A stretch of DNA of 64,000 nucleotides from an uncultured Anaerolineaceae bacterium. Lineage in GTDB: Bacteria > Chloroflexota > Anaerolineae > Anaerolineales > DRMV01. The stretch lies in NCBI GenBank assembly GCA_964446575.1, contig CAYUOX010000062.1, forward strand, positions 19,871-83,870, given 5' to 3'. Under the pieces are notes generated by a model, which was given only the letters and a program-made list of their open reading frames with translations, had not been told where the DNA came from and did not search any database. The position numbers and the translations under genes are program-made. Shown piece after piece: positions 10,908-51,530 of this stretch (the first letter of the stretch is position 1; each line of letters begins with the position of its first letter).

Positions 10908-11492
10908 ATGCAGTGGTGGGAGAGTTTCGGCTTAGGCCTCTCGGCCGCACTGATGCCGGGCGCGCTCCAGGCGTTCTTCTTCGCGCAGGCCGTGCAGCGT
11001 GGCTGGCGCGGGGCTTGGTATTTGGCCTTTACGCCGGTGGTGAGCGATGGGCCGGTGGTCGCGTTCACCTTGTGGGCGCTGGGGCGGTTGCCCACCGCGT
11101 GGCTGGCAGGGCTGCGCTGGGTGGGCGCGGCGTTTTTGCTGTGGGTGGCCTGGCGGCTATGGCATACGGCCACGGCCACCACCGCGGCCTCCGCGTCCAC
11201 CGCGCAGGTGCGCACCTTGGCCCAAGCCGTGAGCATCAACTGGCTCAACCCCAATGTGTACATCTTCTGGGCCACGGTGCTGGGTCCGCCGGTGCTTGCA
11301 GCGTGGCGGATGGAACCTTGGGCCGGCGTGCGTTTGGTGGCCGCCTTCTACGCGGCCATTGTCGCGGGCTCGTTGGCCGTGCTGTTCGTGTTCAGCCGAG
11401 CCCACGGCCTTGCGCCTGCGTGGCGGGCGCGGCTCACCCGGCTGAGTGCGGGGCTCATGGCCCTGTTCGCGGCGCTGCTGGCCTTCGGATAG
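10908..11492 (+). CDS. LysE/RhtB family amino-acid exporter
   Basis: ORF 10908..11492. About 190 aa with 5-6 TM segments. The N-terminal pattern GLSAALMPGALQAFFF...GPVV and the size fit the LysE family. Confidence 0.7.
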   Translation: MQWWESFGLGLSAALMPGALQAFFFAQAVQRGWRGAWYLAFTPVVSDGPVVAFTLWALGRLPTAWLAGLRWVGAAFLLWVAWRLWHTATATTAASASTAQVRTLAQAVSINWLNPNVYIFWATVLGPPVLAAWRMEPWAGVRLVAAFYAAIVAGSLAVLFVFSRAHGLAPAWRARLTRLSAGLMALFAALLAFG

Positions 11493-11530
11493 CGCCTCGC
11501 GGCACTGTCCTCGCGTGCGGTCGCGCGGCC

Positions 11531-12874
11531 TCATCCTTGAGCCCCATGGTCGGCCGCGGCCTTGGGCGCGTCGTCTTCCGAGGACGTTGCGCCTTGCATC
11601 TCGGCCAACAACTGCCGGGCCCGGTCCAGGCGGATGGCCCCTTCGGCGACCATCTGCTGCGCGATGCGCTGCGCCAATTCGCCCGTGGCCCCCGCGGCCA
11701 TAGCGATTTGCCGCGCGTGCAGGCGCATATGCCCTCGTTGGATGCCCTCGGTGGCCAAGGCCCGCAGCGCGGCCAGGTTCTGCGCCAGACCTACTGCGAC
11801 CACGATTTCGGCCAATTCGCGCGCGGTGGTGACCCCCATCAGTTGCAGCGCCGCGCGCGCGCCAGGGTGCGCGCGGGTGGCCCCCCCCACGATGCCCACG
11901 GCCAAAGGCATCTCTAAAGTCCCCACCAGCGCGCCGTCGGCATCGACCTCCCAAGTCGACAACGAGGTATAACGGCCATGCCGCGCGGCATACGCATGCG
12001 CGCCGGCTTCGACCGCGCGCCAATCGTTGCCCGTGGCAATAAGCACCGCGTCAATGCCGTTCATGATGCCTTTGTTGTGCGTCGCGGCGCGATAAGGGTC
12101 GGCGGCGGCAAAGGCCCACGCGGCCACAATGCCATCGCGCACCGCTTGACCCGAAAACCCCCGAAACGCCAACGCATCCGCGGGGATGCGCACCCACGCG
12201 CGCGCCAGCCGCCGATCGGCCAAATTGGACAAAATGCGCAGCACGGCCCGCCCGGAGGTCAAATCCTCTAAATGCGGCGCCAAATGCTCGCACGCGGTGT
12301 TGACCGCGTTCGCGCCCATGGCGTCGCGCACGTCGTAGATCAAATGCACCACCAAAAAGGTCCCCAGCGCCGGATGCGTCAACACCCGCACCTCCAAATC
12401 GCGCGGGCCGCCGCCCAGGCGTTCCAACAGCGGGTCCAGCCCCTGCAGCCGGGCCAGCAGTTCGTCTTTGGCCTCCAAAACACGCAGCCGGGCCGCGTAG
12501 GGGTCGGGCACATCCACCAATTGGATTTGGCCGATCATGAGGGGGTCGGTGGCGTGGGCGCGAAAACCACCCCCCGCGCGGGCCAGTTTGGCCATGTATG
12601 AGGCACCGGCCACGATGGACGGCTCTTCGACTGCCATGGGCACCAGCACCTCACGGCCGTTGACCACAAAGTTGGTGGCAATGCCCAAGGGCAGGCCATG
12701 CACACCGATGACATTTTCGATCATGGTGTCGGCCAGGTCGGGGGTGAGCCCGGCCTCACCCCCCAACGCGGCCAGGGCCTCGGGCGACAGCCATCCTAAT
12801 TCGACCAACCGCTGCCGCCGCTGGGACCAAGGCAAGTGATAAAAGCCGGGCAGGCGAGAAGTGGGCTGAGGCAT
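11531..12874 (-). CDS. mvaA: hydroxymethylglutaryl-CoA reductase, class II
   Basis: Track ORF 11531..12985; ATG at 12874 follows AGGAGA. Motifs ENVIGVHGLPLGIATNFVVNG, VPMAVEEPSIVAGAS, DAMGANAVNT, GNDWRAVEAGAHAYA and EGIQRGHMRLHAR. Confidence 0.85.
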   Translation of the reverse strand: MPQPTSRLPGFYHLPWSQRRQRLVELGWLSPEALAALGGEAGLTPDLADTMIENVIGVHGLPLGIATNFVVNGREVLVPMAVEEPSIVAGASYMAKLARAGGGFRAHATDPLMIGQIQLVDVPDPYAARLRVLEAKDELLARLQGLDPLLERLGGGPRDLEVRVLTHPALGTFLVVHLIYDVRDAMGANAVNTACEHLAPHLEDLTSGRAVLRILSNLADRRLARAWVRIPADALAFRGFSGQAVRDGIVAAWAFAAADPYRAATHNKGIMNGIDAVLIATGNDWRAVEAGAHAYAARHGRYTSLSTWEVDADGALVGTLEMPLAVGIVGGATRAHPGARAALQLMGVTTARELAEIVVAVGLAQNLAALRALATEGIQRGHMRLHARQIAMAAGATGELAQRIAQQMVAEGAIRLDRARQLLAEMQGATSSEDDAPKAAADHGAQG

Positions 12875-12932
12875 GGCGCTTCTCCTGGGGGAAAACTCCG
12901 CGCGGGCCCGCGGCGGGCCCATGGCGCGCGCC

Positions 12933-12969
12933 ATTATACCGCGACGAATGCGCCGGCCCGTGGTATACT
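12933..12969. promoter_or_regulatory. divergent -10 boxes between HMG-CoA reductase gene and moaA
   Basis: GGTATAAT on the minus strand (12938..12933) and TGgTATACT on the plus strand (12961..12969). Confidence 0.4.
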
Positions 12970-13008
12970 TTTTGCAAGAGAACACTCTAAAAAATTCCCG
13001 AGGTGAGC

Positions 13009-13989
13009 ATGGCCTTTGACCGCTATGGCCGGCGGCTGCATTACTTGCGCATCAGCCTGACCGACCACTGCAACCTGCGTTGCGTCTACTGCATGCCGGA
13101 AGACATGACCTTCCGGCCCAACCACGAGTTGATGCAAGACGACGAAATCTTGTTTTTCGTGCGTTTGTTTGCGGATCTGGGGTTCGACAAAATTCGCCTC
13201 ACCGGCGGCGAGCCCACAGTGCGGGCCGGCGTGGTGGACCTGGTGCGCGGCATTGCGGCGACGCGCGGCATTCGCACGGTCACCATGACCACCAACGGCA
13301 TCTTGTTGCCCAAATTGGCAGCAGCGTTGGCCCAGGCTGGGCTGCAGCGGGTCAATGTCAGCCTCGACACGTTAGATCCCAAAAAGTTCCGTCGTCTGAC
13401 CCGCTGGGGTGACCTGGAGGATGTGTTGGAAGGCATTCGGGCTGCGGAAGAGGCGGGTCTGACGCCCATCAAAATTAACGCGGTGGTGGTACGGGGCTAT
13501 AACGAAGCCGATGTGGTCGATCTGGCCGGGCTGACCTTGACGCGCGATTGGCAAGTGCGCTTCATCGAGATGATGCCCTTCGCGGGCGCGACCGACGTTC
13601 AACGCGCGCTGGTGGTCACCACCCACGAGATGATGGCCCAATTGCGCGCGGCTTACGGCGGCCTGGAGCCGGTGGACGGCGGCCGGCTGGACGGCGAAGC
13701 GCGGCTGTATCGGCTACCGGGCGCCCGGGGGACGGTGGGCTTCATCTCGACCATCAGCCAGCCCTTTTGCGCGTCGTGCACGCGCGTCCGGCTCACCGCG
13801 GACGGCCACTTGCGGCTCTGTTTGCTGCGCGAGCAAGAGGTCGACCTGCTCACGCCCTTGCGCCAGGGCGCGTCGCGTGAGACCCTGCGCCGCATGATCA
13901 CCGACGCGTTATGGGCCAAGCCGTGGGGGCACGGCCTGGCCCAAGGCGAAATTCCGCTCAACCGCACGATGAGCCAAATTGGGGGCTGA
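13009..13989 (+). CDS. moaA: GTP 3',8-cyclase MoaA (radical SAM)
   Basis: Track ORF starts at GTG 13003; ATG at 13009 gives MAFDRYGRRLHYLRISLTDHCNLRCVYCMP (CxxxCxxC). The C-terminal Cys cluster CASCTRVRLTADG is present. The start could be 13003. Confidence 0.9.
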   Translation: MAFDRYGRRLHYLRISLTDHCNLRCVYCMPEDMTFRPNHELMQDDEILFFVRLFADLGFDKIRLTGGEPTVRAGVVDLVRGIAATRGIRTVTMTTNGILLPKLAAALAQAGLQRVNVSLDTLDPKKFRRLTRWGDLEDVLEGIRAAEEAGLTPIKINAVVVRGYNEADVVDLAGLTLTRDWQVRFIEMMPFAGATDVQRALVVTTHEMMAQLRAAYGGLEPVDGGRLDGEARLYRLPGARGTVGFISTISQPFCASCTRVRLTADGHLRLCLLREQEVDLLTPLRQGASRETLRRMITDALWAKPWGHGLAQGEIPLNRTMSQIGG

Positions 13990-44655: not shown

Positions 44656-44715
44656 CACGACGGTAGGGGCAATGGCGGCCGCGCGGCCCAAACCCACGTC
44701 AAGGCCCGCGTCGCG

Positions 44716-46992: not shown

Positions 46993-47132
46993 TGATCACC
47001 TCCCTCATCGCCGAAGACTGGGCGGAATCGGTCAGCACCTTCATTATACAGAGAATGCCATCGCAGGGGGCGTGTTATAATTCGTGCCCCTGAATCGGCC
47101 AAATCGCGCTTGACACCCCCCGAGGTGCATCT

Positions 47133-47516
47133 ATGAAGGCGAAAGTGTTGGTGTTAGAAGACGAAGCCCCGCTGAACGATCTGTACACCCGTGTGTTGGC
47201 TCGCGCGGGCTTTGCCGTGGATCAGGCCTATTCGTTGGCCGAAGCGCGCGCGTTTTTGGAACAAGGGCCTTATGACTTCTTCGTCGTGGACATTCGCTTG
47301 CCTGACGGCATTGCGACCGAGTTGTTGCGGGAATATCGCGAGAGGCTCACGGCCCAGGGCACGCAAGTGGTGATTCTCACGGCTGAAGCGCGCTATCGCA
47401 TGGAACTCGCAGAGATGGGCTATGAGCATTATTTTGAGAAGCCCATTTCGCTGCAAATGCTGAGCACGTTTCTACAACGGCTGTGGCAGGCCCGCCAACA
47501 GGGATTGGGCGCCTAA
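47133..47516 (+). CDS. single-domain response regulator (CheY-like receiver)
   Basis: ORF 47133..47516, ATG after GAGGTG. Contains KVLVLEDE and the phospho-acceptor context FFVVDIRLPDG. 127 aa with no output domain. Confidence 0.8.
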   Translation: MKAKVLVLEDEAPLNDLYTRVLARAGFAVDQAYSLAEARAFLEQGPYDFFVVDIRLPDGIATELLREYRERLTAQGTQVVILTAEARYRMELAEMGYEHYFEKPISLQMLSTFLQRLWQARQQGLGA

Positions 47517-47639
47517 CCACGTCGTGCGGTCGGGGCCCTGGGCAACCACGGCGCGAAACTTTGCCCCCGCACCCATACGAGGCAACGCGGTGCAACGCGC
47601 GCCGCGCGAACGGCGTACTGCGAAGACGCGCCACCCCCT

Positions 47640-47700
47640 GGCCGGGCCACGCCGCGCGGCCGCTGGGCACGCGGCCGCCGGGCGAGGCAGCGCCTCGCCC
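47640..47700. repeat. GC-rich repeat unit copy 1 (24-nt exact direct repeat plus 9-bp hairpin)
   Basis: GGCCGGGCCACGCCGCGCGGCCGC at 47640..47663 is repeated exactly at 47865..47888. Hairpin GGGCGAGGC-agc-GCCTCGCCC lies at 47680..47700 and is followed by CTAC. Confidence 0.7.
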
Positions 47701-47746
47701 CTACTACCCGCCAACTTCCAACGCGCCGACCCCATCCCCCCTTGGT

Positions 47747-47773
47747 CCCCCTTCCCCTACGAGGGGAAGGGGG
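47747..47773. repeat. perfect hairpin H1: CCCCCTTCCCCT-acg-AGGGGAAGGGGG
   Basis: 12-bp perfect stem with a polypyrimidine 5' arm, a polypurine 3' arm and an ACG loop. Confidence 0.7.
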
Positions 47774-47811
47774 GAGATGGTTCGCGTGAGGCGCGGGGCA
47801 GGCCCGCATCG

Positions 47812-47852
47812 CCCCTCCCCCTTTACGAAAGGGGGAGGGGTTGGGGAGGGGG
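47812..47852. repeat. perfect hairpin H2 (CCCCTCCCCCTTT-acg-AAAGGGGGAGGGG) overlapping a four-tract G-run (G5-A-G4-TT-G4-A-G5)
   Basis: 13-bp perfect stem at 47812..47840 with the same ACG loop as H1. G-tracts at 47831..47852 fit the canonical G-quadruplex pattern. Confidence 0.7.
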
Positions 47853-47864
47853 ATTCAACCCGCG

Positions 47865-47929
47865 GGCCGGGCCACGCCGCGCGGCCGCCGGGCCCGCGGC
47901 CCCGGTCCGGGCGACCTGCCGGGTCGCCC
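47865..47929. repeat. GC-rich repeat unit copy 2 (24-nt exact direct repeat plus 8-bp hairpin)
   Basis: Exact 24-mer at 47865..47888. Hairpin GGGCGACC-tgccg-GGTCGCCC lies at 47909..47929 and is followed by CTAC. The stem differs from copy 1 by paired changes on both arms. Confidence 0.7.
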
Positions 47930-47992
47930 CTACCCGCTGCGCCCTTCTGCCCGCTCCCAGCGGTGGGGTATGGTTCCGTGGCGCTGGACCCC

Positions 47993-48020
47993 TTGACGCA
48001 GCCGCCCCTTGTGGTATCCT
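47993..48020 (+). promoter_or_regulatory. candidate ychF promoter (TTGACG-16 nt-TGgTATCCT)
   Basis: -35 at 47993..47998 and an extended -10 at 48012..48020, 35 nt upstream of the ychF ATG. Confidence 0.4.
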
Positions 48021-48054
48021 CGTTCGGTCATACCTTCCCCCGGAGGACGCGGCC

Positions 48055-49119
48055 ATGCAATTGGGTCTGGTTGGCTTGCCCCAGAGTGGCAAGACCACGG
48101 TGTTCAACGCCTTGACCGGCAGTGATGTGCCCTTGGCCATGACCGGCCACCGTTTCGAAGTGCATACCGCGGTGGTGGATGTGCCCGATCCGCGCGTGGA
48201 CGCGCTGGCCGAACGCTTTGGGTCGCGCAAACGCACTTATGCCAAGGTGACTTACGCGGACATCGCGGGCTTGAGCGGTCAGGCTGGCGGCGAACTGCCG
48301 GGGCCGCTGCGCAATCTGTTGGGCCAGATGGACGCACTGGTGCATGTGGTGCGGGCCTTTGACAACCCCCAAGTTCCCCACCCCGCGGGGTCGGTGGACC
48401 CCGCGCGCGACATCGCCGCGCTGGAGCAGGAACTGCTGCTGCACGACTTGGTGACGGTAGAGCGTCGCCTGGCACGGTTGGCCGAAGAACGGCAAAAGGG
48501 CGCCCGACCGAAGGACGACATCGCCCGCGAACGCGCGCTGTTCGAGCGGCTGTATGCCGCGCTGGAGGCCGGCCAGCCGTTGCGGGCTTTGGATTTTTCG
48601 CCTGCAGAGGCCCGAATTCTGGCTGGCTTTGGCTTGCTCACCCGCAAGCCCATGTTGGTGCTGCTCAACATCGGCGACGACGATGAGCCCCCGACCATCG
48701 AGACGCCCAGTCCGCGCACCCGCATTGTCGCGCTGCGCGGCCGCTTGGAGATGGAACTGGCCCAAATGGAGCCTGAGGAAGCCGCCTACTTTCGCCGGGA
48801 ATATGGCCTGACGGAGTCCGCGCTGGAGCAGGTGGTGCGCTTGTCCTATGCCTTGTTGGATCGTCTCACCTTTTACACCGTGGGGGAAAAAGAATCTCGG
48901 GCCTGGTCCTTGCCGCGGGGCAGCACCGCGCTGGACGCCGCGGCCGCGATCCACACCGACTTGGCTCGCGGCTTCATTCGCGCCGAAGTGATCCATTACG
49001 ACGAATTGATGGCCTTGGGCGATTGGGCCGCGGCCCGAGCCGCCGGCAAAATCCGCCTGGAGGGCAAGGACTACGTGGTGCAGGATGGCGATGTGCTGTT
49101 GATTCGCTTCGCCCCTTGA
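48055..49119 (+). CDS. ychF: redox-regulated ATPase YchF
   Basis: 3' part of track ORF 47524..49119; ATG at 48055 follows [28 protein letters not shown] is followed by the C-terminal TGS-like region (…[19 protein letters not shown]). Confidence 0.9.
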
Positions 49120-49315
49120 CGTGCCCCGGCCGCGAAGAAACCGTCCGCTGCCGATTTGCGCATCGCCCCACAGCCGCGAGGTTGCGCAAGCCGTACATCA
49201 TGACCAACCACAGATGCCGTCTGCCCGCGGATGGCGTATAATGGAAAAGAACGCCGCGCGCCCCCGGGGCCTGCGGCGCGTTGTTGGATGTCATCTTGAC
49301 GCAAGGAGCAATGCC

Positions 49316-51214
49316 ATGTCTCGACCGTTTACCCCCACGCCTCTCAAGCGCCGCTATCCGGTGCCTTCGGACATCGAAATCGCGCAAGAGGCCGAACTCA
49401 AGCCCATCACCCAAGTAGCCGAAGAGGCGGGCATCTTGCCCGAGGAACTGGAACTGTACGGCCCCTATAAGGCTAAGGTCAAACTGGAGATTTTGGAGCG
49501 CTTGAAGGATCGGCCCAACGGCAAATACATCGTAGTCACGGCCATCACCCCGACGCCTCTGGGCGAAGGCAAGACCACCACAACAGTGGGTTTGAGCCAG
49601 GCTTTGGGCGCTCACTTGGGCCAGCGGGTGTTCACCGCCATTCGGCAGCCCAGCATGGGCCCCACCTTCGGCATCAAGGGCGGTGCAGCCGGTGGCGGCT
49701 ACAGCCAGGTCATCCCCATGGAGGACTTCAACCTGCACCTCACCGGCGACATTCACGCGGTGAGCATTGCCACCAACTTGCTGGCGGCCGCCCTCGACAC
49801 CCGCATGTTCCATGAGTCCCGCCAGAGCGACGAAGCCCTGTTTCGACGTCTCTTCCCGGTGAAGAACGGCGTGCGCCAGATCCCGCGTGGCTATCGCTAT
49901 CGCATGGAGAAACTGGGCATCAAGCCCGAGGACTTGGACAACTTGACGCCCGAGCAACGGCGCAAATTGGTGCGCTTGGACGTCGACCCGGCGACCATCA
50001 CCCTGCGCCGGGTGGTGGATGTGAACGACCGCCTGCTGCGCGAGGTGGAAATCGGCTTGGGGCCTGACGAGAAGGGCTTTACCCGGCGCACAGGCTTCGA
50101 CATCAGCGTGGCCAGTGAGATCATGGCCATCTTGGCTTTGGCCACCAGCCTCAAAGACCTGCGCGAGCGTCTGGGGCGCATTGTGGTCGGCCTCGACCGA
50201 GAAGGCAACCCCGTTACCGCGGAGGACTTGGCCGTCGCGGGCGCGCTCACGGTGCTGATGAAAGACGCGCTCAAGCCCAACCTGATGCAAACCCTGGAAG
50301 GCACACCGGTCTTTGTGCACGCGGGGCCTTTCGCCAACATCGCCCACGGCAACAGTTCCATTGTGGCCGACTACATCGCGCTTAAGTTGGCCGATTATGT
50401 GGTCACCGAGGCCGGCTTCGGCGCGGACATTGGCTTCGAGAAGTTCGCGGACATCAAAACGCGCTACTCGGGCTTGACCCCCAACGCGGCCGTCATGGTC
50501 GCCACCGTGCGCGCGCTCAAGATGCATGGCGGTGGCCCCAAAGTCACGCCAGGCAAGCCCCTGGACCCGGCCTACACCCAAGAGAATCTGGAACTGCTGC
50601 GCGCGGGCCTGCCCAACCTGATCCACCACATCCAAACCGTGCGCAAGTACGGCATCCCGGTGGTCGTGGCGATCAACGCGTTCTCGACCGACACGCCGGC
50701 CGAGCACGAGATGATCCGCCAAGCCGCGCTGGAGGCTGGCGCGTTCGACGCGGTGGTCACCCGCCACTGGGAATTGGGCGGTGAGGGCGCTATCGACCTG
50801 GCCAAGGCCGTCATGAAGGCCACCGAGCAGCCTTCCCAATTCCGCTTCTTGTATGACCTCGATCTGCCCATCAAGGAGAAGATCGAGATCATCGCTCGGG
50901 AGGTTTACGGCGCGGATGGGGTGGACTTCGAGCCATTGGCCGAGGAGCGCATTGCCGAATACACCCGCCTGGGCTACGACAAACTGCCCATCTGCATCGC
51001 CAAGACCCACCTGAGCATCAGCCATGACCCGAATCTCAAAGGCGCGCCGCGAGGTTTCCGGGTGCCTGTGCGTGACATTCGCTTGTCTGCGGGCGCGGGC
51101 TTCTTGTACCCGCTGGTGGGGAAGATCCGCACCATGCCGGGCTTGCCCACGCGGCCGGCCTACATGAACGTGGATGTCGATCTGGAGACGGGCCGCGTTG
51201 TGGGGCTCTTCTAA
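49316..51214 (+). CDS. fhs: formate--tetrahydrofolate ligase
   Basis: 3' part of track ORF 49121..51214; ATG at 49316 lies 7 nt after [16 protein letters not shown]..., [16 protein letters not shown] and the full ~630 aa length. Confidence 0.95.
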
Positions 51215-51266
51215 GCCGATTTGGCGGGGGACGCCCTCCGGTGCGGCCGAGCCATGCCTCAATGAC

Positions 51267-51300
51267 ACGCCCGGGTAGGGAGACCTGCCCGGGCGTTTTC
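51267..51300 (+). terminator. intrinsic terminator of fhs
   Basis: ACGCCCGGG-12 nt loop-CCCGGGCGT followed by TTTTC, about 50 nt after the fhs stop. Confidence 0.75.
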
Positions 51301-51530
51301 ATCGCGCGTAGATGTGGCCGCGGCCCAGGGATCGCGCCGGCGCGTAGGCCCGGGCCGGCCTTGCGCTGCCCTTGGCGCGCGGCCCAGCCCCATGCGGCCG
51401 CGAACGACCTCGCAGCCCGGCCCAGGCCGCGCGCGGCCCAACTGGTCAGCCCTTCGGCGCGGGACGCGTTTTCTTCGGGGTTGCAGCACCTTGACCGGGC
51501 CCGATGTGGGGCTGCCTCTTGGGGCCAGGC

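Follow-up and report, generated by a model that had tools for sequence, protein, structure and literature searches.

The hairpins with which the present locus is best compared are the repetitive extragenic palindromes (REPs) of the GTAG type, recognized here by a GTAG (or GTGG) tetranucleotide lying 0-2 nt from the hairpin foot. In the operational definition of Quentin et al., a REP has a basal stem of 7-20 bp without mismatches, with G or C at three or more of the first four positions, and a loop of 2-5 nt (PMC6006769). Chloroflexi with clustered GTAG REPs have already been listed, namely the GTAG-23 family of Thermomicrobium roseum (Di Nocera et al., 2013, PMC3733652). The bacterial interspersed mosaic elements (BIMEs) of Escherichia coli are mosaics of REP hairpins and other conserved short motifs in variable order and number, located between genes at the 3' ends of transcription units. 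GTAG-tagged REP sequences have reportedly also been treated by Nunvar (2010) and by Bertels and Rainey (2011). In this work we analyzed a 64-kb stretch of DNA, hereafter the window, in which a response-regulator gene and ychF are separated by a long spacer rich in hairpins. Our results indicate that positions 47633-47940 of this spacer are probably a mosaic cluster resembling BIMEs, made of short non-coding repeats that form hairpins and are members of families dispersed in an Anaerolineales (Chloroflexota) lineage. The cluster is REP/BIME-like "junk" or selfish DNA of an ordinary kind, shared with related Anaerolineales, and not a ychF-specific regulator. Coordinates are positions in the window, L001-L090 designate external loci and P0001 a public protein.

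The cluster contains two same-orientation GTAG REP hairpins of different subtypes, one C/G-tract palindromic unit of ~130 nt and two 44-nt modules, all described here on the plus strand. It begins with module A, a GC-rich direct repeat of 44 nt whose two copies (47633-47676 and 47858-47901) are 91% identical and hold the 24-mer GGCCGGGCCACGCCGCGCGGCCGC. As a preliminary description of this DNA had stated, the 24-mer is exact at 47640-47663 and 47865-47888; it has no third site in the window, even with three mismatches, and gave no match in 100 shuffles. The same description was also right that further GC-rich sequence and then a hairpin follow each copy, both hairpins being perfect and ending in CTAC, which is GTAG on the minus strand. 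After the first copy of module A lies REP-type hairpin 1, of subtype B, at 47680-47704 (GGGCGAGGC-agc-GCCTCGCCC plus CTAC; 34.6 bits, E=3e-8, with the REP covariance model R1), and then a linker at 47705-47729, TACCCGCCAACTTCCAACGCGCCGA, which carries the short-repeat motif CCAACTTCCAAC and is conserved in L003 and L005. The core palindromic unit, module F, occupies 47730-47857 and was defined by the inverted repeats I2, I7 and I8 and by alignments A1 and A2 with 21 other copies. It consists of a C-tract (47730-47741), a perfect C/G-tract hairpin of 12 bp (H1, 47747-47773), a small hairpin CGCG-TGAGG-CGCG (47783-47795), a second perfect C/G-tract hairpin of 13 bp (H3, 47812-47840) and, as its last part, the invariant G-tract 24-mer GGGGGAGGGGTTGGGGAGGGGGAT (47831-47854). 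An nhmmer profile of the core matched 47738-47887 (E=2e-27), the sole copy in the window. The second copy of module A, which is the 3' continuation of the core in the family alignment, is followed by REP-type hairpin 2, of subtype D, at 47909-47933 (GGGCGACC-tgccg-GGTCGCCC plus CTAC; R1 38.5 bits) and by CCGCTGC (47934-47940), the right boundary of the family-related sequence, where blastn matches end at 47937-47940.

Both hairpins of the window agree with the definitions given above. The tag lies at 0 nt from both stems, as it does in 27 family members, and one stem has 9 bp and encloses a 3-nt loop, the other has 8 bp and a loop of 5 nt, both on a GGGC/GCCC base; they also fit the account of GTAG REPs by Di Nocera et al. 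(PMC3733652). The likeness to GTAG REPs thus lies in the tag that immediately adjoins the base of a GC-rich stem of 8-9 bp, free of mismatches and with a loop of 3-5 nt, in the presence of several stem subtypes in one lineage, and in copies that are extragenic, 3' of genes, clustered and tandemly reiterated with flanking DNA, with a content that varies between strains. In a survey of about 270 kb anchored only on the motif CCCCTAC, 16 of 76 sites carried a perfect stem of 8-9 bp ending exactly at CTAC and the other 60 had none, while by our own estimate about 0.01 perfect CTAC-anchored stems of at least 8 bp would be expected by chance. When 22 REP hairpins were aligned, the four basal pairs (GGGC/GCCC) were nearly constant and the inner four varied in concert: five of the eight stem pairs change on both sides, and 96% of cells are paired. 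The covariation score was 0.458, as compared to 0.146 in shuffles (none of 500 reached it) and at most 0.095 with slid partners; members of this set were picked with at least 7 of 8 pairs, a bias from which the anchor-only survey is free. The covariance model built from this alignment found in the window only the two known hairpins, the next match having 15.8 bits, and elsewhere it exceeded 30 bits only in loci of the window lineage and of the metagenome-assembled genome (MAG) JALSPJ01 presented below; the ychF loci of relatives and the loci from other phyla gave no match. Covariation therefore extends beyond the two window stems, and the paired stem changes of the preliminary description are real at the level of the family. 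What did not hold is their interpretation as one hairpin drifting under structural selection: the two window hairpins are different REP subtypes, found side by side in full units at other loci, and not one evolving hairpin. The REP stem sequences (GGGC-NNNN...) were not found described in the searchable literature.

The composite is not limited to this locus. The exact 24-mer had no match in 185,579 GTDB species genomes, so the species representative of the window organism is either absent from that set or different at the 24-mer site. In JGI metagenomes, it was present on six contigs, of which three (L003, L005 and L008, all from Ga0256914) have it in the same composite context, with C/G-tract hairpins upstream and CTAC-tagged hairpins downstream; in L004, L006 and L007 the flanks share nothing with the element, and these were rejected as chance matches. 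The blastn similarity of L003, L005 and L008 to the window is confined to 47633-47940, at 78-90% identity, and the genes around them (sufBD and rpoC; polyprenyl synthase) are unrelated to those of the window. Across loci, the composite is built of core F and module A, the latter also sitting after the core in L003, L005 and L008, then of variable REP subtypes B, C or D, plus module E. Module A is followed by REPs in the order B-C in L003 and L008 and C-D in L005, the window having B or D at this place, and module E is present or absent. In L003, a unit of 240 bp is repeated in tandem 2.2 times. The order in the window is A-B followed by F-A-D, and the two copies that were said to bracket a core do exist; their arrangement is better read, by comparison with the L003 array, as a composite tandem repeat of which about 1.3 units are present. 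The mosaic character known from BIMEs, REPs together with other conserved motifs in variable order and number between genes, is therefore present. The search for further copies thus found the modules at unrelated loci of related genomes and metagenomes.

Some details of the smaller modules can be added. Module E has the form ATGCTGCCTGCTGATCTCACACGGAGACACGGAGAACAC...GGATGTTTTCGC, has short tandem repeats of the CACGGAGA type as its basis, and lies at L001 9795-9879 (inserted after window position 47933), at L003 82-140 and 727-785, and at L008 60-120; its analogue in JALSPJ01 is a CGCGGATAAA/CGCGGATGAA module beside REPs (L028 1150-1480 and 6860-7160). The subtype D hairpin, with its arms and CTAC tag, also occurs in L028, L032, L036 and L043, with the loops tgccg, tgtcg, tgcc, agcc or agccg. 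Short repeats of the CCAACTTCCAAC/CCAACCACCAAC type recur at array edges (window 47708-47725, L044 3880-3950, L048 3900-3960, L028 7290-7330) and are also present just upstream of the ychF promoter region in relatives devoid of the element; CCAAC-type repeats similar to the linker motif lie 5' of ychF in the relatives L044 and L048.

A sister family was identified through the most conserved stretch of the core, GGGGGAGGGGYTGGGGAGGGGGAT, which GTDB genomes contain in 35 stretches. A single MAG, "Anaerolineales bacterium 356-284_metabat2_scaf2bin.041" (JALSPJ01), accounts for 23 of them, 20 with a profile-confirmed copy, and another Chloroflexi MAG accounts for four. Alignment with the window core revealed the same two C/G-tract hairpins, the small middle hairpin and the G-tract, while a GGCC...GGCC hairpin takes the place of the window's 24-mer. 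Each JALSPJ01 locus has 1-5 tandem units in the profile search, and the full element is a long palindrome of ~300 bp with clear ends, CTTACTTTTAyACACAT...ATGTGTGTAAAAGTAAG. The relationship of the genomes is indicated by the HtrA-like protease of this MAG, 80% identical to that of the window, and the close YchF homologues carry Chloroflexi or Anaerolineales labels, which places the window organism among the relatives of Anaerolineales. Dispersed REP copies in related genomes and metagenomes thus comprise L003, L005 and L008 and five JALSPJ01 loci, in addition to 39 stretches of IMG/VR contigs discussed below.

Arrays of this kind also vary between strains. The exact YchF protein of the window is encoded on the ENA contig k141_293289 (L001), which is 99.8-99.9% identical to window positions 38140-59119. 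The L001 spacer is 85 bp longer, the extra segment lying directly after the CTAC of hairpin 2, ending in another ...CCGCCGGGTCGCCCCTAC and containing module E. In addition, of 18 substitutions counted over 9.8 kb, 5 are concentrated in 47893-47917, against a background of about 1 per 900 bp. Given this indel and the cluster of substitutions between otherwise near-identical contigs, the array is a hot spot of structural variation. The third "REP" of L001 is a hybrid whose 5' arm, GGGCACGC, comes from one subtype and whose 3' arm, GGTCGCCC, comes from a different one, and it looks like the product of a deletion between the loops of two neighbouring REPs.

The genes around the arrays, called with a crude caller based on GC3, show that the arrays are intergenic throughout. 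Among the 16 arrays with both neighbours resolved, 12 lie between co-directional and 4 between convergent genes, and none is in a divergent promoter region. This is the pattern known for REPs, which are extragenic and lie 3' of genes (PMC3733652). The orientation of the arrays relative to co-directional genes is not fixed, 9 being antisense and 3 sense (of which 2 are independent). The modules are thus found at unrelated intergenic loci, in tandem arrays of variable composition.

We hypothesize that the REP hairpins are or were substrates of a REP-associated tyrosine transposase (RAYT) of the HUH/Y1 type, a kind of enzyme that acts on single-stranded hairpins carrying a GTAG guide; such a REP/RAYT system would here involve GTAGGGGC-type REPs. 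The gene for a cognate RAYT (TnpA-REP) commonly has its REPs on both sides, an arrangement called a REPtron. Changes in array length would result from slippage or from recombination among modules in direct repeat. Effects on the host, if any, would be incidental: situated 3' in the response-regulator transcript, the stable hairpins could hold back exonucleases or reduce transcription that continues into ychF, a gene that seems to have retained a promoter of its own 3' of the cluster.

Several observations weigh against the interpretation as a REP/BIME-like cluster. The two window REPs lie head-to-tail on the same strand, 229 bp apart, so that they do not form the pair of inverted REPs with a short spacer that defines a REPIN. 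This arrangement and the large C/G-tract linker depart from classical REPINs and BIMEs; the latter alternate REP orientation with short linker motifs, while the linker in the window is a palindrome of ~130 nt with hairpins of its own. In described REP families, inverted doublets are favoured and head-to-tail dimers are rare (PMC3733652). Only one cluster is present in the 64-kb window, where neither the core profile nor the REP covariance model gave a further convincing copy, and a high copy number in the window genome is therefore only deduced from its relatives. In about 370 kb, no RAYT- or IS200-like gene was detected by tblastn with a TnpA sequence of the IS200 type, a weak test. Covariation in the C/G-tract hairpins of the core is weak: the pairs are mostly invariant, with one lineage-level compensatory change, and slid controls still have 75-80% of cells paired, so the core gives no real covariation evidence. 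Finally, the mismatches in the REP stems (4 G:T and 3 A:C) have no strand bias, and hence nothing in them points to a function of one strand at the RNA level.

The preliminary description had proposed a REP/MITE-like element, a small structured RNA or a protein-binding insulator. The first option is supported by the non-orthologous intergenic copies and by the agreement with the definition of GTAG REPs. A structured cis-regulatory leader or a small RNA gene specific to ychF (a riboswitch-like element or sRNA) is very improbable and has largely been refuted by the comparative data. The plus strand does fold slightly better than shuffled sequence (z=-2.3) and the hairpin stems covary, but the minus strand folds no better than shuffled (z=-0.97), the element lies upstream of the ychF promoter-like site, and elsewhere it adjoins unrelated genes. 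No Rfam family reaches its gathering score in the whole window, and in the spacer at E<=10 only weak, biologically irrelevant matches were obtained, the best being an antizyme frameshift element (E=0.015), far below the gathering score. In seven relatives (L044 and L046-L051), whose YchF is 83-91% identical, ychF is preceded by other genes (AMP-binding enzyme, DUF7990 or methylmalonyl-CoA mutase) and by spacers of about 70-280 bp, and neither the profile nor blastn detected any trace of the element upstream of it. This absence 5' of orthologous ychF, together with the variable orientation relative to flanking genes, leaves the RNA and also an insulator of ychF without support. It is likewise quite unlikely that the repeats are domesticated chromosome or RNA elements in a more general sense, such as protein-binding sites, mRNA 3'-end stabilisers, or terminators and insulators between the response-regulator transcript and ychF. 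Such roles have been reported for E. coli REPs, with BIMEs being bound by gyrase, IHF and Pol I (PMC3733652, PMC6006769), the hairpins are very stable, and the copies lie 3' of genes and never between divergent ones. Against this, no terminator-like site was found in 47000-48300, where the GC-rich hairpins have no T-run, orientation relative to transcription is not fixed, and the element is present or absent among close relatives, with a content that varies between strains by whole modules. A last alternative, that a neutral spacer underwent a single local duplication and that its hairpins arose by chance in GC-rich DNA, would agree with the single cluster in the window; it is scarcely credible, being refuted by the same modules at many loci in other assemblies and by the excess of perfect CTAC-anchored stems over the chance estimate.

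More weight can be given to an alternative that concerns the origin of the core, although we consider it rather doubtful. The core unit (47730-47857 plus module A) may be a miniature inverted-repeat transposable element (MITE) mobilised through terminal inverted repeats by a DDE-type or other transposase, with the REPs as a separate family in shared intergenic "landing pads", that is, two selfish families nested in each other. Its outer C-tract and last G-tract form imperfect inverted repeats (I2, 71% complementary over 24 nt and of low complexity), and the ends are clearer in the long palindrome of JALSPJ01. REPs accompany some core copies, in one or the other orientation, and are missing from others, and in Alphaproteobacterial MAGs the 22-nt G-tract and C-tract form the termini of an element with a different interior. 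On the other hand, low-complexity C/G tracts can pair by composition alone, as the slid controls indicate. No target-site duplication or parent IS was identified, a transposase with matching ends is neither known nor seen, and the window lineage amplifies the unit as a tandem array and not as single insertions. The Correia/NEMIS elements of Neisseria, pneumococcal BOX/RUP, the SNRs of Deinococcus and the cyanobacterial Nezha and STRR repeats are small repeats of the MITE-like or mosaic type. They resemble the window element in being non-coding, 100-300 bp long, with terminal inverted repeats and long hairpins, and in their modular structure, with a variable number of internal boxes, and dispersal in intergenic DNA. 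They share no sequence similarity with it, and its termini differ in being low-complexity C/G tracts with G-quadruplex potential.

The wider distribution of two parts of the cluster, apart from the REP/BIME-like interpretation of the whole, would be the sole more-than-routine part of these results. The subtype D REP palindrome, GGGCGACC-N4-GGTCGCCC-CTAC, was found in 39 stretches of IMG/VR contigs (L052-L090) with 47-72% G+C, where it can be written GTAGGGGCGACC-N4-GGTCGCCCCTAC. It occurs there most often as the perfect 28-bp palindrome GTAGGGGCGACCGGCCGGTCGCCCCTAC (for instance at L061 74-101) and in some cases as two inverted copies of the REP, in the manner of a REPIN (L068 4577-4662). Genes of Mu-like phages (Mu Gam, Mu-like prophage I, Rha) are present on some of the contigs. 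In records of cultured phages and plasmids the palindrome is absent, with only chance partial matches, and it was not found in the searchable literature; the G-tract 24-mer is absent from the viral contigs. The second part is the 22-nt G-tract GGGGGAGGGGTTGGGGAGGGGG, a canonical G-quadruplex motif, present in the core as an invariant G5-A-G4-TT-G4-A-G5 stretch, around which the tracts of the core succeed one another as C-tract, C-tract, loop, G-tract ... C-tract, loop, G-tract, G-tract. It was located in Alphaproteobacteria MAGs (L012, L013, L016-L018, L034 and L038), in Fimbriimonas (L009) and in a Chloroflexi MAG (L023, L035, L037 and L039). In the Alphaproteobacteria MAGs, it is the right end of a different long palindrome of ~125 bp, whose left end is its exact complement, and these copies and those of other Chloroflexota share with the core the 22-nt termini and a three-helix architecture. 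The Alphaproteobacteria palindrome is either the same architecture in another phylum or a convergence of low-complexity hairpins. Taken together, the core unit and the REP palindrome might be parts of undescribed element families that travel widely, as a REP/RAYT-like or MITE system shared across phyla and transferred horizontally, perhaps with transposable phages as carriers, and the core might act as a hairpin/G-quadruplex switch; we regard this as speculative and unlikely. It would contrast with the REPs described so far, which are vertically inherited and lineage-bound.

With respect to the surroundings of the cluster, its location after the response-regulator stop and before a ychF promoter candidate is as the preliminary description gave it. 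The response-regulator receiver gene (47133-47516, plus strand) matches Pfam PF00072 (E=1.4e-14), and the repeats lie 3' of its stop codon. The ychF gene (48055-49119, plus strand; Pfam YchF-GTPase_C, TGS and MMR_HSR1) starts with an ATG at 48055, preceded by a sigma-70-like site at 47993-48020 on the plus strand, TTGACG-16-TATCCT with a TG extension, a putative promoter by consensus match only, which lies downstream of the repeat cluster and outside it. The first part of the spacer, 47517-47632, is unique GC-rich sequence outside the repeat family: blastn matches to other element loci begin at spacer position 117. Within this part, 47559-47582 resembles 47741-47764 with 75% identity (repeat pair D3) and may be a decayed fragment. 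In the relatives, the neighbourhood of ychF is strikingly unstable, with at least four different upstream genes, and the response regulator is found there only in the window lineage. The window has a G+C content of 64.8%, and the GCCGCGCG-rich strings near 51400 and 57400, which had been thought loosely similar to the repeats, are unrelated: they gave no profile match and no REP-model match above 8.3 bits, and look like generic GC-rich spacer. The sequence GTAGGGGCAATGGCGGCCGCGCGGCCC (44663-44689, minus strand), in a 49-bp gap between convergent MarR-like and HtrA-like genes, scores weakly with the REP model (13.7 bits, E about 0.08); it could represent either a degenerate REP or no more than the palindrome of a terminator. 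Just 3' of the formate-tetrahydrofolate ligase gene, at 51262-51300, the sequence GCCCGGG-tagggagacct-gCCCGGGC followed by TTTT has the classical shape of an intrinsic terminator, which shows that T-run terminators are used elsewhere by the window organism. For the cluster itself, an intrinsic terminator was discarded as an explanation by the lack of a T-run, a CRISPR array by the lack of a regular repeat-spacer pattern, integron attC sites by the lack of cassettes, and a template/variable-region pair of a diversity-generating retroelement because the differences are not A-specific and neither a coding target nor a reverse transcriptase is nearby.

The repeats also have consequences for annotation. 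Two plus-strand frames (47483-48115 and 47524-49119) stay open across the spacer, and for this reason the N-terminus of ychF can be over-extended by about 177 codons. A six-frame pseudo-protein search for spurious open reading frames over other copies gave one match, P0001, a public protein of 488 aa (NCBI source) that ends in the translation of another repeat copy (…RRPHPPLVPPSPRRGRREMVRVRR…GVGEGGFNP…AGSPLPA) and is an annotation artefact. For formate-tetrahydrofolate ligase, the longest open reading frame has 697 aa (49121-51214); since the call in L001 is shorter (632 aa, 11262-13160) and the Pfam match begins at residue 83, the true start is probably near 49316.

The repeat cluster thus explains the oddly long, hairpin-rich spacer in front of ychF, and its recognition guards against over-extension of this gene and against annotation errors of the P0001 type. 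Arrays that change by whole modules between near-identical strains are useful strain markers and recombination hot spots. Our findings add an uncultured Anaerolineales lineage to the bacteria with GTAG-type REPs and BIME-like mosaics.

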